Assembly: GCA_039649115.1 (NCBI GenBank)
Contig: JBBWZQ010000338.1
Location: 100-64,099 of the forward strand
Source: Micromonosporaceae bacterium
GTDB taxonomy: Bacteria > Actinomycetota > Actinomycetes > Mycobacteriales > Micromonosporaceae
Direction: 5' to 3'
Length of the DNA: 64,000 nucleotides
Shown piece by piece: positions 36,230 through 44,990 of the stretch. The notes beneath the pieces were generated by a model. That model ran no database searches, was not told the origin of the DNA, and was given only the letters and a program-made list of their open reading frames with translations. The position numbers and the translations under genes are program-made. Position 1 is the stretch's first letter. Each line of letters starts with the position of its first letter.

Positions 36230-36333
36230 CTGGCTGACCGGACCGCCTGACCGGCTGGCTGACCGGACCGTCAGCCTGCCTGGCTGACCGGACCGCCTGG
36301 CTGACCGGACCGTCAGACCGCCTGGCTGACCGA
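36230..36333. repeat. Irregular tandem array of the 16-nt unit CTGGCTGACCGGACCG (4 full copies + 1 partial) between convergent genes
   Basis: Full copies start at 36230, 36255, 36280 and 36297, with a partial copy at 36322. Spacing is 25/25/17/25 nt. The last copy forms the final codons and stop region of the pmbA-like gene (..SVSQAV*). Confidence 0.8.
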
Positions 36334-37698
36334 CGACATGTTGAAGCCCGCGACTCGCATCGGCGGCATGGCGCAGTGCGTGAACGCCTCGCCCCACTCG
36401 CGCGCCCGGGTCGGCACCGCGGCTCCCACCTCCACCACCCGGCCCAGCAGGTCCACCGGGCTTTCGTTGAACCTGAAGTTGTTGACCGCGCCCACCACCT
36501 CGCCGCGCTCGACCAGGAAGACACCGTCGCGGGTGAGTCCGGTGAGCAGCAGCGTGGGCAGGTCGACCTCCCGGATGTACCACAACGTGGTGAGCAGCAG
36601 ACCCCGCTCGGTACCGGCGACCAGGTCCGCCAGGGAGCCGCTCGCGCCCGCACCCTCCAGGATGAGGTTGTCGATGTGCGGGGTGACCGGCACACCGGTC
36701 AGTGCCGCCGAGTGGCGGGTCTGCACCAGGGCGGTGAGCACCCCGTTGTCGATCCACTGTGTCCGGTGTACCGGCAGGCCGTTGTCGAACACCGAGACGC
36801 GCTCGTCGGAGCCGGGAGCCAGCACGAACGGCGCGCACTCCAGTCCCGGCTCCGCGGGGTCCGCGCGCAGCGTGAGAGGCGCGTCGCTGAGCCGCTCGCC
36901 GACCCGGGTACCACCGCCGGGCGCGCTGTAGACGGTCTGCCCCTCGGCCGCCTCCCGGCCACCGGCCGACCAGTACGCGTAGGTCATGAGGTCGGCGACG
37001 GCGACCGGCGGTACGAGCGCCTCGTACCGCCCCGCCGGCAGCGGTACCCGCCGGCGCGCCCAGCCCAGCCGCTCGTCGACCTGCGCGTAGAGGCTGGCGA
37101 TCCCGCCGGCGCTCAGGTCCTCCGCCGAGCCCGCCCAGGCGGAGCCGAGTCCACCGGCCGACCTGCCGGTCAGCTCGACGTAGCCGGTGTGGTGGTCGGC
37201 GCGCCGCCGTACCCCGGCAGAGGTGGCCAGGAAGACCGACCGCGCGCCGCGTTCGGCGTACCCGTAAAGGCTCTGCCCGCGCGCCCGCGCCTCGCCGAAC
37301 GTCGCACCGAGCGCGGGCGCGAGCGCCGCGAGCGCCGCCACCGAGGTTTCCGGCACCGGTGCGGCCCAGTCCGCGTCGGCACCGGCGCAGTCGACAAGTG
37401 GCTGCGCGTCCTCGGCGGGCTCCGCGGCCCGGGCCGCGCCCTCGGCCGCCGCCACCAACTCGGACAGCCTCCCGTCCACGTCACCGCGGTGGGCGACGAT
37501 CCCGGCGCTGGTACCGCGCCCGCCGTCGACGGTCGCGACGACCGTCAGCCGCCGGCCACTCGCCAACCCGTCGGTTGTCAGGCTGTTGTCGGCCCACCGG
37601 ATGTTCGCCTCGCTGTCCTCCGTGACGATGGCGACGCAGCCGTCCGCGCGGCACATCTCCAGCGCGCGCTCGGCGATCTCGTGCGACGGCAACCTCAT
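36313..37698 (-). CDS. pmbA: PmbA/TldE-family protein (non-catalytic partner of TldD)
   Basis: The start is trimmed to the ATG at 37698 within track ORF 36313..38430 (MRLPSHEIAERALEMCRADG...). It shows PmbA_TldD-family similarity and lacks the HExxxH motif. Its ATG overlaps the TldD stop (ATGA). Confidence 0.8.
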   Translation of the reverse strand: MRLPSHEIAERALEMCRADGCVAIVTEDSEANIRWADNSLTTDGLASGRRLTVVATVDGGRGTSAGIVAHRGDVDGRLSELVAAAEGAARAAEPAEDAQPLVDCAGADADWAAPVPETSVAALAALAPALGATFGEARARGQSLYGYAERGARSVFLATSAGVRRRADHHTGYVELTGRSAGGLGSAWAGSAEDLSAGGIASLYAQVDERLGWARRRVPLPAGRYEALVPPVAVADLMTYAYWSAGGREAAEGQTVYSAPGGGTRVGERLSDAPLTLRADPAEPGLECAPFVLAPGSDERVSVFDNGLPVHRTQWIDNGVLTALVQTRHSAALTGVPVTPHIDNLILEGAGASGSLADLVAGTERGLLLTTLWYIREVDLPTLLLTGLTRDGVFLVERGEVVGAVNNFRFNESPVDLLGRVVEVGAAVPTRAREWGEAFTHCAMPPMRVAGFNMSSVSQAV

Positions 37699-39206
37699 CG
37701 GCCCACCCTCTCCCGCGCGGTGTCCAGCACCCGGACCCGGCCGAACAGCGCCGCCGGGCAGCCGTGGCTGACCGCGGCCAACTGCCCGGGTTGGCCCTTG
37801 CCGCACATCGACGCTCCGGACAGCAGGTATGTCTGCGGGCCGCCCAGCGCCCGCAGCGAGTTCCAGAACCCGGGCGTCGAGCCCTGGTAGGCCACGTCTC
37901 GTAGCTGACCGGCCAGCCGCCCGTGCCGGATGCGGTAGAAGCGCTGCCCGGTGAACTGGAAGTTGTACCGCTGCATGTCGATCGACCAGCTGTTGTCGCC
38001 GACGACGTAGATGCCGTCGGCCACGTCCCCGATCAGCTCGGCGGTGTCCGGCCCACCCGGCGCCGCGGCCAGCGACACGTTCGCCATGCGCTGCACGGGT
38101 ATGTGCGAGAACGAGTCGGCGTACGCGCAGCCGTTGGAGCGGTCCAGGCCCACCAGCCGCGCCGTCCGGCGGTCGACCTGGTAGCCAACCAGCACGCCGT
38201 CGCGTACCAGGTGCCACGACTGCGCGGCCACACCCTCGTCGTCGTACCCGATGGTGGCCAGGCCGTGCGCCGTGGTGCGGTCCGCCGTCACGTTCATGAC
38301 CGGCGATCCGTACCGCAGCCGGCCGAGCTGGTCGGGGGTGGCGAACGAGGTGCCCGCGTACGCGGCCTCGTAGCCCAGCGCCCGGTCCAGCTCGGTGGCG
38401 TGCCCGATCGACTCGTGGATGGTCAGCCACAGGTTCGTCGGATCGATGACGAGGTCATAGGCGCCCGGCTCGACCGACGGTGCGGCCGCCTTGGCGCGCA
38501 GCTGCTCCGGCAGCGCGTCCAGTTCGCCGGCCCAGTCCCAGCCGGTACCGGTCAGGTACTCCCAGCCGCGCGCGACCGGCGGACCCAGCGTGCGGAGCGT
38601 CTGGAACCCACCCCCCGCCCGGTCCACGCGTACCGCTGTGACCATGGGGTGTACCCAGACCCGGCGCTGCGTGGTGGTGGTACCCGACGAGTCGGCGTAG
38701 AACTTGTCCTCCCGGCTGGCCACCAGCCGGGCCACGACGTGGTCCACGCCGCCGGCCGCCAGCAGCATCCCGCTCCACTCCTGGAGCTTGGCCACCCGCT
38801 CGTCGCCGGGTACCTCCAGCGGGTCGATCAGGTGGTCGGAGCTCCACGTCGCGTCCCGGTACACGGGCTCCGGCGCCAGCTCTACCGGCGTGCCGCGCAG
38901 CGCCCGTACGGCACGGGCCACCGCACATGCCTGACCGGCGACCCGCGCCGCGTCGTCCGGGGTGAGCCCGATCCCGGCGGCGAATCCCCAGACACCGCCG
39001 ACCAGCACGCGTACCCCGAAACCGACCTCGCCGCTGTCATCGCTGCCCTGCAGCCGCCCGTCGCGTACCCGCAGCTCCAGCTGCCGGCGCCGGCCGAGCC
39101 GGAAGTCGGCGTGCCGGGCGCCGCGAGCGGCGGCGCGGTCGATCGCGGCGTCGGCCATGGCCCGTGCCGGCGCCTCGACAGGGACCGTCGCCTGCTCCAC
39201 CGCCAT
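37695..39206 (-). CDS. tldD: TldD-family zinc metalloprotease
   Basis: 503-aa ORF with metal-binding motif HESIGHATELD and the family block GxC...MCGKG near the C-terminus. Confidence 0.85.
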   Translation of the reverse strand: MAVEQATVPVEAPARAMADAAIDRAAARGARHADFRLGRRRQLELRVRDGRLQGSDDSGEVGFGVRVLVGGVWGFAAGIGLTPDDAARVAGQACAVARAVRALRGTPVELAPEPVYRDATWSSDHLIDPLEVPGDERVAKLQEWSGMLLAAGGVDHVVARLVASREDKFYADSSGTTTTQRRVWVHPMVTAVRVDRAGGGFQTLRTLGPPVARGWEYLTGTGWDWAGELDALPEQLRAKAAAPSVEPGAYDLVIDPTNLWLTIHESIGHATELDRALGYEAAYAGTSFATPDQLGRLRYGSPVMNVTADRTTAHGLATIGYDDEGVAAQSWHLVRDGVLVGYQVDRRTARLVGLDRSNGCAYADSFSHIPVQRMANVSLAAAPGGPDTAELIGDVADGIYVVGDNSWSIDMQRYNFQFTGQRFYRIRHGRLAGQLRDVAYQGSTPGFWNSLRALGGPQTYLLSGASMCGKGQPGQLAAVSHGCPAALFGRVRVLDTARERVGR

Positions 39207-44120: not shown

Positions 44121-44779
44121 CGGCTCGGCAGGCGGACACCGCGCTGGTGGTGCGGTCCCTTCCGGGACCAGCGACGTACATGTGCGGCCTCACCTGGGAC
44201 GGCCACCAGCTCTGGCACTCCGACCAGGAGGCGCTGCGAATCTACGCGATCGACCGGGAGACCGGCGCCGTGCGGCGGGTCATCGACTGCCCGTGGGTGC
44301 GCGCCGACCTGGCGAACCACGACGGGCTGCTGTGCCAGGTGGGCGGCCGGCCCAAGCGCATCGTGCTGGTGGACCCGGCGACCGGGCGGACCGCCGGCCA
44401 GAAACGGGTGCTGCCGGCCAGCGGCCGGCTGTGCGGCATCGAGACGGGGCCGGACGGGATGTGGATGTGCCTGCGCGCGCCGGCGGTCGTGCAGTTGCGC
44501 GACATGGAGTCGATGACGGTGCGGCGGGAGTATCCGGTGCCGGGCTCGCCCTCGGGCCTGACATACGTCGACGGGGTCGTGGTGTATTCCGAGTTCGACG
44601 GCGGCGTGGTGCGGGCCGTGGACGCCGGGACCGGCGAACCGCTCGGCACGGTACCGGTCGAGGGCCACCCGACCGGCATGACGTGGGACGGCGAGCACCT
44701 GTGGTACTGCGACTTCGCCACCCGCACGGTCAAGGCGATCCGGCTGGAGGACGTGCTGAACGGGAGGGGCCGTGACTGA
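44117..44779 (+). CDS. Beta-propeller protein, glutaminyl-cyclase-like (Glu_cyclase_2-type), cytoplasmic
   Basis: The ATG overlaps the upstream stop (ATGA). Repeated blocks GLTWDGHQLWHSD and GMTWDGEHLWYCD resemble bacterial/plant-type glutamine cyclotransferase propellers. The assignment is tentative. Confidence 0.55.
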   Translation: MTARQADTALVVRSLPGPATYMCGLTWDGHQLWHSDQEALRIYAIDRETGAVRRVIDCPWVRADLANHDGLLCQVGGRPKRIVLVDPATGRTAGQKRVLPASGRLCGIETGPDGMWMCLRAPAVVQLRDMESMTVRREYPVPGSPSGLTYVDGVVVYSEFDGGVVRAVDAGTGEPLGTVPVEGHPTGMTWDGEHLWYCDFATRTVKAIRLEDVLNGRGRD

Positions 44780-44990
44780 GCCGAGGTACCTGGACGCGAT
44801 CGAGTTCACCATGGCGGGGCAGCCGGGAAGGGTGCACGCGGCCGCGTCGTACGACGGTCAACTGTGGCTCACCACGGTCTGCGGCCTCGCCATCCAGGCG
44901 TACGTGTCGACCGGTACCCCGTGGCGCGACGTGGCGCCGGACCAGCGGTGCGCGAGGTGCGTGGCGGCGCTGGCGGTACCGGCGCGGTAG
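44772..44990 (+). CDS. Small 72-aa hypothetical protein, last gene of the operon
   Basis: The GTG start overlaps the upstream stop (GTGA), and a GGGAGGGG SD lies 5 nt upstream. Third-position GC is high. Cys pattern is C37 ... C60xxC63. No family recognised. Confidence 0.45.
   Translation: MTEPRYLDAIEFTMAGQPGRVHAAASYDGQLWLTTVCGLAIQAYVSTGTPWRDVAPDQRCARCVAALAVPAR

Follow-up and report, generated by a model that had tools for sequence, protein, structure and literature searches.

Seven genes at positions 36313–44990 of a 64-kb window of Micromonosporaceae DNA encode a TldD/PmbA-like protease pair and, divergently from it, a class-V pyridoxal phosphate (PLP) enzyme, two family-5 substrate-binding proteins (SBP5-1 and SBP5-2) predicted to lack a signal peptide, a putative five-bladed propeller and a 72-aa protein. 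The window, meaning the whole stretch of 64,000 nucleotides that was analyzed (G+C ~72%), makes up nearly all of a 64,269-bp contig of a metagenome-assembled genome (MAG). The block lies within an enediyne biosynthetic cluster and very probably represents, in this genome, an accessory block conserved among enediyne clusters of the calicheamicin type (10-membered).

Gene content of the block and its calicheamicin-type counterparts

Reading frames were picked by third-position GC, and gene families in the window were taken from Pfam scans. The block and the gene next to it comprise the following features, with putative calicheamicin-type counterparts in brackets:

36313–37698, minus strand: pmbA-like gene (CalR5), 461 aa, PmbA_TldD_3rd at 1e-27
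37695–39206, minus strand: tldD-like gene (CalR6), 503 aa, Pfam PmbA_TldD first and third domains
39207–39335: divergent intergenic region of 129 bp, holding an AT-rich element
39336–40661, plus strand: class-V PLP enzyme (CalE9), 441 aa, Aminotran_5 at 1.6e-28
40676–42385, plus strand: SBP5-1 (CalT6 type), predicted leaderless, 569 aa, SBP_bac_5 at 1.2e-47
42405–44120, plus strand: SBP5-2 (second CalT6-like paralogue), predicted leaderless, 571 aa, SBP_bac_5 at 3.2e-47
44117–44779, plus strand: five-bladed propeller by structure prediction (CalU13), 220 aa
44772–44990, plus strand: 72-aa open reading frame (ORF), third-position GC 0.91
45005–45961, minus strand: homocysteine-S-methyltransferase-family enzyme (CalE2), 318 aa, S-methyl_trans at 4.8e-49, convergent and just beyond the block

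The source MAG has been annotated publicly with products identical to all seven (MEN3309340-46), and its PLP gene is labeled CalE9 there. Together with our own gene calls, that annotation bears out the seven genes, their strands, the 129-bp spacer and the gaps of 14 nt (PLP gene to SBP5-1) and 19 nt (SBP5-1 to SBP5-2) proposed in a first-pass annotation of the stretch; Pfam likewise returned the families that it had named for the protease pair, the PLP enzyme and both SBP5 proteins. Third-position GC is 0.91–0.94 in the measured frames, and the pmbA and propeller ORFs failed that filter. Shine-Dalgarno sequences precede the tldD, PLP, SBP5-1 and SBP5-2 starts. The pmbA/tldD and SBP5-2/propeller junctions are ATGA overlaps as described before; the propeller/72-aa junction, previously given as a 4-nt GTGA overlap, is in fact an 8-nt overlap (GTGACTGA).

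Some 35 nt ahead of the PLP start, at 39278–39301, the divergent spacer contains a 24-nt AT-rich element, GCTTTAATAGTATATGGTAACGTG. A Jatrophihabitans locus (L006, 8599–8622) has 21 of the 24 positions in common with it, although the rest of the spacer has diverged there; SBP5 genes of two further loci (L039 and L046) are preceded by weaker matches that contain ATGGTAA. The element probably serves as a shared promoter or operator; a sigma-70 consensus scan of the 129-bp region gave no match.

The identity of the block follows from two reference clusters. The cluster of strain TSRI0369 is called calicheamicin-like by its authors, and its last genes have calicheamicin homologues in the order CalU8, E4, E6, E2, U13, E9, T7, R9, T6, T6', U11, R5, R6 (PMC5181780 Table S4). 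The same table lists CalE4 as a cysteine desulfurase, CalE6 as a gamma-lyase and CalE2 as a homocysteine methyltransferase of 300 aa, followed by CalU13 (hypothetical, 217 aa), CalE9 (aminotransferase V, 445 aa), CalT7 (ATP-binding cassette (ABC) substrate-binding protein, 564 aa), CalR9 (unknown, 410 aa), CalT6 (570 aa), another protein of CalT6 type (575 aa), CalU11 (260 aa), CalR5 (peptidase, 457 aa) and CalR6 (modulator of DNA gyrase, 488 aa). In Micromonospora sp. CA-263727 (L008) we found the same order and sizes: HxlR, a desulfurase-like class-V enzyme, a Cys/Met gamma-lyase family member, a homocysteine methyltransferase, propeller and PLP enzyme, then SBP5, a 405-aa protein, SBP5, SBP5, a 263-aa protein, PmbA and TldD. 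Pfam identified the genes preceding the L008 propeller as HxlR, Aminotran_5 (2e-125), Cys_Met_Meta_PP and S-methyl_trans. The window proteins are 50–78% identical to those of L008, and their lengths (461, 503, 441, 569, 571, 220 and 318 aa) parallel the 457, 488, 445, 570, 575, 217 and 300 aa of the TSRI0369 proteins (PMC5181780).

Because L008 matches TSRI0369 in order and sizes, because its proteins are 50–78% identical to those of the window, and because the source annotation carries the CalE9 label, we infer orthology through TSRI0369 and L008 and consider the assignment to a calicheamicin-type block very probable. CalR5/CalR6 would then correspond to PmbA/TldD, CalE9 to the PLP enzyme, CalT6-type proteins to the SBP5s and CalU13 to the propeller, with CalE2 next door. 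The window shares with calicheamicin and TSRI0369 the same families and sizes, and homologues of CalU8, CalR2 and CalR4 elsewhere in the cluster; the gene order is matched in L008. Unlike them, the window lacks a third SBP5, of CalT7 type, between PLP gene and SBP5 pair, its CalR9-like gene lies 20 kb off, its TldD/PmbA pair diverges from the PLP operon (an arrangement common only to the window and Jatrophihabitans L006), a 72-aa gene is added, and neither CalE4 nor CalE6 is on the contig. The CalR9 counterpart is a 423-aa protein (18817–20088, minus strand), ~20 kb from the window SBP5 genes, for which no Pfam or NCBIfam family matched.

The calicheamicin cluster genes of Micromonospora echinospora were reportedly described by Ahlert et al. 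in 2002, and the gene set has been in the literature since then. The first-pass annotation had presented the gene combination as undescribed; this does not stand, given its listing for TSRI0369 (PMC5181780 Table S4), an earlier remark that the calicheamicin cluster holds a PmbA/TldD pair (PMC4351081) and the CalE9 label in the source. Its description of a cytoplasmic, transporter-less module in an enediyne cluster and with no assigned function does hold.

Further features of the window, by Pfam unless stated, are as follows:

1–18 kb (left zone): cellulases and regulators
~18.8 kb to right end of window: biosynthetic cluster
49287–59154: enediyne cassette of DUF1702/E3, UnbV/E4, an NQR2-like membrane protein (UnbU/E5) and a 1911-aa polyketide synthase (PKS; PKSE)
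right end of window: HxlR/SCP2 regulator, BTAD activator and Clp ATPase, putative counterparts of CalU8, CalR2 and CalR4 by family and size

With the cassette starting at 49287, the placement of the block inside an enediyne cluster is confirmed; 4.3 kb separate the two. Three genes at 46025–48308 (plus strand), flanked by the methyltransferase gene on one side and the MerR/enediyne cassette on the other, encode a 215-aa membrane protein with no family, a copper-binding protein with a CopC domain, and a regulator of AraC type. A copper-related pair is unexpected in an enediyne cluster. On the other side of the block, a 592-aa protein (22963–24741, minus strand) is 63–86% conserved in Actinoplanes and Winogradskya loci. 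This protein was considered as an additional sulfur link through a faint N-terminal resemblance to SBP56/methanethiol oxidase MtoX, as was a DinB/MDMPI-like gene (32262–33245); both matches fall far under the family cut-offs and were set aside.

Leaderless binding proteins and their partners

Both SBP5 proteins are predicted to lack a signal peptide, and the leaderless state is evidently a trait of their clade. For SBP5-1, AGGAGG lies 7 nt before the ATG, and only 23 codons, overlapping the PLP gene, separate the start from the upstream in-frame stop. The region 5' of SBP5-2 overlaps the end of SBP5-1, and a Shine-Dalgarno sequence precedes its ATG at 42405. A database search with SBP5-1 returned hundreds of relatives, 55–84% identical and ~565–575 aa long, from many actinomycete genera and Bradyrhizobium. 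In an alignment of 14 such proteins, every start falls 7–10 residues before a conserved GGTLR (GGxLR) motif, and mean column identity is 66%, which is high for a binding protein. Many genes of the related loci surveyed below (group A) have an in-frame stop just 12–33 codons upstream of the GGxLR motif, leaving no space for a leader, and neither an export signal nor a lipobox was found for the family in the window or in ~60 related loci. These upstream stops and the conservation of the starts among relatives indicate that the starts are not mis-called, in line with the first-pass description of both proteins as leaderless.

A sister-clade SBP5 at L065 (9821–11662), the sole member inspected, carries the lipoprotein signal LALGLTGC. 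A search of the window and the 60 loci for an ORF with Walker A and LSGGQ signatures, as expected of an ABC ATPase, found none, and no cognate permease family turned up in the Pfam scans of the window. The reported absence from the window of an ABC ATPase, a permease, a nonribosomal peptide synthetase and a maturase for ribosomally synthesized and post-translationally modified peptides (RiPPs) is therefore upheld by the signature search for the first and by the Pfam scans for the others. Since the sister clade keeps a lipobox and the leaderless clade has neither leader nor ABC ATPase, the latter appears to derive from exported peptide-binding lipoproteins, with loss of export and transporter.

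The two SBP5 proteins are 44% identical, and SBP5-2 retains the invariant columns, the WxPDW motif among them; its orthologues (60–73% identical) adjoin the SBP5-1 type in many loci. The closest solved structure to SBP5-1 by sequence is OppA2 (2WOK, 4.6e-41), followed by the next binding protein at 5.8e-24, and the fold of an AlphaFold2 (AF2) model with a predicted local distance difference test score (pLDDT) of 69 matches OppA2, DppA and OppA in the same ranking. R403 and D461 of SBP5-1 align with R355 and D408 of Escherichia coli DppA, which we take to clamp the carboxylate and α-amino group of the bound dipeptide, and neither residue varies across the leaderless clade, SBP5-2 included. The SBP5 proteins thus look as if they keep an Asp/Arg clamp for the amino and carboxyl ends of a peptide, which would suit an amino-acid-type ligand.

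OppA1 and OppA2 of the clavulanic-acid cluster of Streptomyces clavuligerus (PDB 2WOK, 2WOL and 2WOP) are family-5 proteins within a biosynthetic cluster, as are those described here. OppA2 is by far the best sequence and fold match to SBP5-1, yet identity is only ~25% and the pathway is different; we know of no PLP, propeller or TldD partners of OppA1/OppA2. A late step of clavulanic acid formation requires both oppA1 and oppA2, and an oppA2 mutant releases N-acetylglycyl-clavaminic acid, an N-acyl-amino-acid intermediate that OppA2 is thought to bind and present to the next enzyme (PMC8788787).

The PLP enzyme is a divergent class-V member, scoring 100 bits against Aminotran_5 compared with 419 bits for the CalE4-like enzyme of L008. 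Its best NCBIfam match is PvdN, below the cut-off, while its SufS score is 75 bits against a cut-off of 475. In the PDB, the best matches are PvdN (3.9e-25), the cystine C-S lyase C-DES (1.3e-20) and the ergothioneine lyases Egt2/EgtE, with true desulfurases ranking below all of these. The PLP lysine, Lys236, lies in SGSKW, aligned with HKW of PvdN. No cysteine-desulfurase Cys loop was seen before the C-terminal R-x-[SC] segment, a moderately secure observation that comes from the PvdN alignment only. Together, these comparisons place the enzyme in the class-V fold, with its PLP lysine present, without the score of a cysteine desulfurase (SufS/IscS/NifS) and, with moderate security, without the loop. 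Its nearest relatives, namely PvdN, cystine C-S lyase and EgtE/Egt2, act on a free α-amino-acid moiety. The earlier suggestion that the components handle peptides or amino acids gains some support from these relatives and from the SBP5 clamp residues.

In E. coli, TldD carries the zinc motif and TldE does not. The window pair is similarly a two-gene pair with HExxxH in one subunit only, with HESIGH at residue 264 of TldD and no HExxxH in PmbA. The best PDB match of TldD is E. coli TldD (5nj5, 8.9e-18) over the C-terminal domain, and the NCBIfam TldD/PmbA equivalog scores (104 against 635 bits and 68 against 513 bits) do not reach the cut-offs. The pair accordingly belongs to a divergent subfamily; it differs from the E. 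coli housekeeping pair in being very divergent and embedded in a cluster.

The propeller is predicted to have a glutaminyl-cyclase-like fold. Its AF2 model (pLDDT 94.6) has 20 strands in five blades, and the top Foldseek matches are the glutaminyl cyclases 3mbr, 2iwa and 3nol (TM 0.79–0.81). It shares the size and five blades of the plant/bacterial-type cyclases, but only 12–18% identity. Pfam Glu_cyclase_2 reaches 16.6 bits against a cut-off of 22.3, over 38 residues only, PQQ_2 is also below cut-off, and a profile search against the PDB found 3nol weakly, at E 0.56. The cyclase-like label given at first pass is thus kept for the fold, as a structure prediction. The protein family is narrow (202 matches), and several of the named matches are on contigs that also bear SBP5 genes.

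The 72-aa protein has ~10 related clusters among 1.84 billion representatives. A 72-aa gene also follows the propeller gene in L001, L006 and L007, with 54–70% identity, and the product is probably a small metal-binding protein. Conservation over the whole length and the invariant H22, C37, C60 and C63 argue against a precursor peptide, and the proposal that this ORF supplies a peptide substrate was not sustained for so rare a protein.

The neighboring CalE2-like enzyme has C225, C296 and C297 (GGCCG) as candidate zinc ligands, at positions that presumably bind zinc in homocysteine-family thiol methyltransferases. Its gene adjoins the propeller and PLP genes in L008.

Recurrence of the block in other genomes

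To place the block among related genomes, we scanned one genome per species, which yielded 79 SBP5 loci, and annotated the loci by tblastn with the window proteins and the proteins of three earlier neighborhoods. They fell into two clearly separate groups. Group A, which includes the window and the earlier neighborhood loci, comprises 60 loci with SBP5 proteins 47–84% identical, nearly all at least 53%; group B comprises 22 Actinomadura/Spirillospora loci (L063–L084) with SBP5 proteins ~45% identical and served as a natural control. Partners were counted within 10 kb of the SBP5 gene.

Within group A, a second or third SBP5 paralogue was present at 45/60 loci, a propeller of the window class at 49/60, a DUF6004 protein at 40/60 and a CalE9-type PLP enzyme at 38/60. 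A PrmA-like methyltransferase was equally frequent (38/60), and a 405-aa protein with no family (CalR9 type), usually between two SBP5 genes, occurred at 34/60. Less common were a homocysteine-type methyltransferase (21/60), PmbA and an ABC1-like protein (15/60 each), TldD (9/60) and the 72-aa gene (4/60). In group B, module partners were found at 0/22 loci. A PKSE or E3–E5 match lay within the same distance at 13/60 group-A loci, compared with 0/22 in group B; these enediyne-linked loci include Saccharothrix, Actinosynnema, Actinokineospora, Actinocrispum, Nocardiopsis and two alphaproteobacteria. Leaderless SBP5 relatives therefore recur with the same partners in ~60 loci of actinomycetes and alphaproteobacteria, and the co-occurrence check called for at first pass shows a neighborhood strongly conserved in relatives, which is not that of a housekeeping locus.

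In a Phyllobacteriaceae MAG (L051, 1–21695), PKSE-E5-E4-E3 stands directly beside SBP5-DUF6004-PrmA-ABC1-PLP, and in Roseibium sp. (L054, 1–21689) an enediyne-type PKS is next to SBP5, DUF6004, PrmA-like and ABC1-like genes. These accessory genes also occur together at two Bradyrhizobium loci (L004 and L050). The set is present as well in Actinomadura verrucosospora (L042), an esperamicin-producing species. The set is co-inherited with enediyne biosynthetic genes, even into alphaproteobacteria. In actinomycete relatives, the block is contiguous with the sulfur enzymes CalE4, CalE6 and CalE2.

Nocardia loci (L003, 7139–8092; L012–L029) add, between the SBP5 genes, a 317-aa thioredoxin-reductase-like flavoprotein (Pyr_redox_2) and an AHSA1/START-like protein, each at 14/60 loci. 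Thioredoxin-reductase-like flavoproteins serve disulfide formation elsewhere, and AHSA1/START-like proteins serve enediyne self-resistance.

Possible roles in enediyne biosynthesis

The block proteins are cytoplasmic and transporter-less and resemble proteins that bind and process ligands whose amino-acid end is free; what they bind and process is most likely an amino-acid-tagged drug intermediate. As of 2016, the enzymes that install the methyl-trisulfide and the thiosugar sulfur of calicheamicin were stated to be unknown (PMC4851618). In the mechanism that we propose, an enediyne intermediate would be joined to cysteine itself or to a peptide or thiol that contains it, and the SBP5 proteins, having lost signal peptide and transporter, would hold and present this conjugate in the cytoplasm, as is thought for OppA1/OppA2. 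The TldD/PmbA heterodimer would trim the peptide or acyl part of the handle, and the CalE9-like PLP enzyme would act on the exposed α-amino-acid moiety, most plausibly by C-S cleavage of the S-linked cysteine, leaving sulfur on the enediyne core. The CalE2-like enzyme could then methylate this sulfur to give part of the methyl-(poly)sulfide trigger, with the cyclase-fold propeller and the small Cys/His protein as auxiliary components.

The sulfur step is suggested by the position of the block next to CalE4/CalE6/CalE2 in relatives, the Nocardia flavoprotein, the proximity of the PLP enzyme to PvdN and C-S lyases together with its missing desulfurase Cys loop, the candidate zinc cysteines of the methyltransferase, and a parallel in lincosamide biosynthesis. 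The late lincosamide steps (LmbV, LmbE, LmbF, LmbG), compared here from their description only, resemble the window in having a TldD/PmbA-family pair, LmbIH/LmbQ, in the cluster; there a thiol conjugate is trimmed by deacetylation, cut by the PLP C-S lyase LmbF and S-methylated by LmbG. LmbF, however, is a fold-type-I AAT_I enzyme and not of class V, the methyltransferase is of another family, and neither an SBP5 nor a propeller is involved. The role of LmbIH/LmbQ is itself unproven. We considered this pair as the deacetylase of the cysteine conjugate and dropped the idea, since the published account does not assign that enzyme; the likeness remains an analogy.

Taken together, the identity of the block and a role in handling, within the cytoplasm, an enediyne intermediate conjugated to an amino acid or peptide, probably so that sulfur can be installed, make up a reading that we regard as evenly poised between right and wrong. 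The sulfur mechanism by itself is tentative and rather more apt to fail than to hold, and it is doubtful, if possible, that the SBP5s, the CalE9-type PLP enzyme, the propeller and, in actinomycetes, TldD/PmbA form a cytoplasmic machine that turns such a conjugate into the sulfur trigger.

Several observations weigh against the combined reading. TldD/PmbA (9–15/60) and the homocysteine-type methyltransferase (21/60) are missing near many loci, so the sulfur or protease steps may lie outside the core function, and no CalE4- or CalE6-type gene was found among the window genes scanned. In alphaproteobacteria, the SBP5 gene stands with DUF6004, PrmA-like and ABC1-like genes by the PKS cassette, which fits core construction equally well, and the PLP enzyme could alternatively be aminating, decarboxylating or epimerizing. 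The SBP5-1 model is only of moderate quality (pLDDT 69). We found no mention of CalT6, T7, U13, R9, R5 or R6 in the searchable literature, and a literature search on CalE9 and on enediynes with substrate-binding proteins returned nothing relevant. The cassette of the window raises a further point. Its E3 protein (49287–50330) is closest, at 65–67% identity, to E3 proteins such as those of Rugosimonospora acidiphila and a soil-metagenome contig (L085 and L086), whose cassettes show no SBP5 within 10 kb; these were the two inspected among the best 120 E3 relatives, which come from other Micromonosporaceae. Actinokineospora diospyrosa was the only case in which an E3 relative could be placed on one contig with an SBP5 locus, and E3 proteins of other SBP5-bearing clusters are just 36–45% identical to that of the window. 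Because the two close E3 relatives inspected are without SBP5 within 10 kb and the E3 proteins of SBP5-bearing clusters are distant, accessory block and PKS cassette may have different histories.

The chief competitor, which we judge unlikely but well worth weighing, holds that the block builds or tailors the 10-membered core with no part in sulfur chemistry: the SBP5s would hold a reactive polyene or polyyne, and the PLP enzyme would decarboxylate or add nitrogen, for instance the amine that later becomes the methyl carbamate of calicheamicinone. The alphaproteobacterial clusters L051 and L054, where SBP5 adjoins the PKSE/E3–E5 cassette along with DUF6004, PrmA-like and ABC1-like genes, speak for this account, as do the higher frequencies of DUF6004 and the PrmA-like methyltransferase compared with the homocysteine-type methyltransferase or TldD. 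The mean column identity of the SBP5s, unusually high across phyla, would fit action on an invariant core, and PvdN, the best match of the PLP enzyme, is not a lyase; the other close structural relatives of that enzyme are C-S lyases, however, the clamp residues favor an amino-acid-like ligand over a bare polyene, and the actinomycete block is contiguous with three sulfur enzymes. The same clamp residues, which fit a small zwitterionic ligand and not a glycosylated enediyne, bear on the quite improbable alternative that the SBP5s are self-protection proteins or chaperones that sequester the completed enediyne or a toxic intermediate late in the pathway, like the apoproteins of 9-membered enediynes, with the adjacent enzymes being unrelated tailoring functions. 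Two or three SBP5 paralogues per cluster, a fold with no known catalytic motifs and the AHSA1/START-like proteins at 14/60 loci, a class that includes the known calicheamicin self-sacrifice resistance proteins, would be in keeping with such sequestration. The SBP5 genes are nevertheless tightly packed with the PLP and propeller genes (14 nt, 19 nt and ATGA) and co-occur with enzymes, not with transporters, and the OppA2 precedent concerns an intermediate, not resistance.

Two further explanations carry little weight. A RiPP-like system, with the 72-aa ORF as precursor, TldD/PmbA as leader protease and the SBP5s as recognition proteins, would draw on the processing of microcin B17 by TldD/TldE (cited in PMC4351081) and on the translational coupling of the ORF to the operon. 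We consider it very improbable: the gene is present at just 4/60 related loci, no maturase turned up in the Pfam scans, and full-length conservation with an invariant His/Cys3 set is as expected of a folded protein that binds metal and not of a leader with a variable core. On this rarity and whole-length conservation the precursor reading of the ORF was rejected. Scarcely credible is nutrient peptide uptake, with a housekeeping TldD/PmbA pair in the cluster by chance, even though the public annotation names the SBP5s 'peptide/nickel transport system substrate-binding protein'. The proteins have no signal peptide and no ABC ATPase, the gene set moves jointly between phyla and next to enediyne PKS genes, the true lipoprotein clade is without these neighbors, and TldD scores far under the equivalog cut-offs; we take uptake and housekeeping to be refuted on these grounds.

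Two approved antibody-drug conjugates carry calicheamicin as their payload. The present analysis does not solve how the sulfur of calicheamicin is installed; it identifies the block as a conserved, functionally unassigned part of calicheamicin-type clusters and so yields a short list of candidate genes. New here are the separation of a putative leaderless SBP5 clade from a lipoprotein sister clade, the apparent retention of the clamp residues, OppA2 as nearest structure, the predicted cyclase fold of the propeller, and the spread of the set with enediyne PKS genes into alphaproteobacteria. The combination of leaderless SBP5, propeller and CalE9-type PLP enzyme offers a marker set for sorting enediyne clusters into subclasses. 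If the proposed mechanism is true, it would represent binding-protein-assisted installation of sulfur on a highly reactive scaffold, and would give signal-less family-5 substrate-binding proteins their first defined role in a catalytic pathway.

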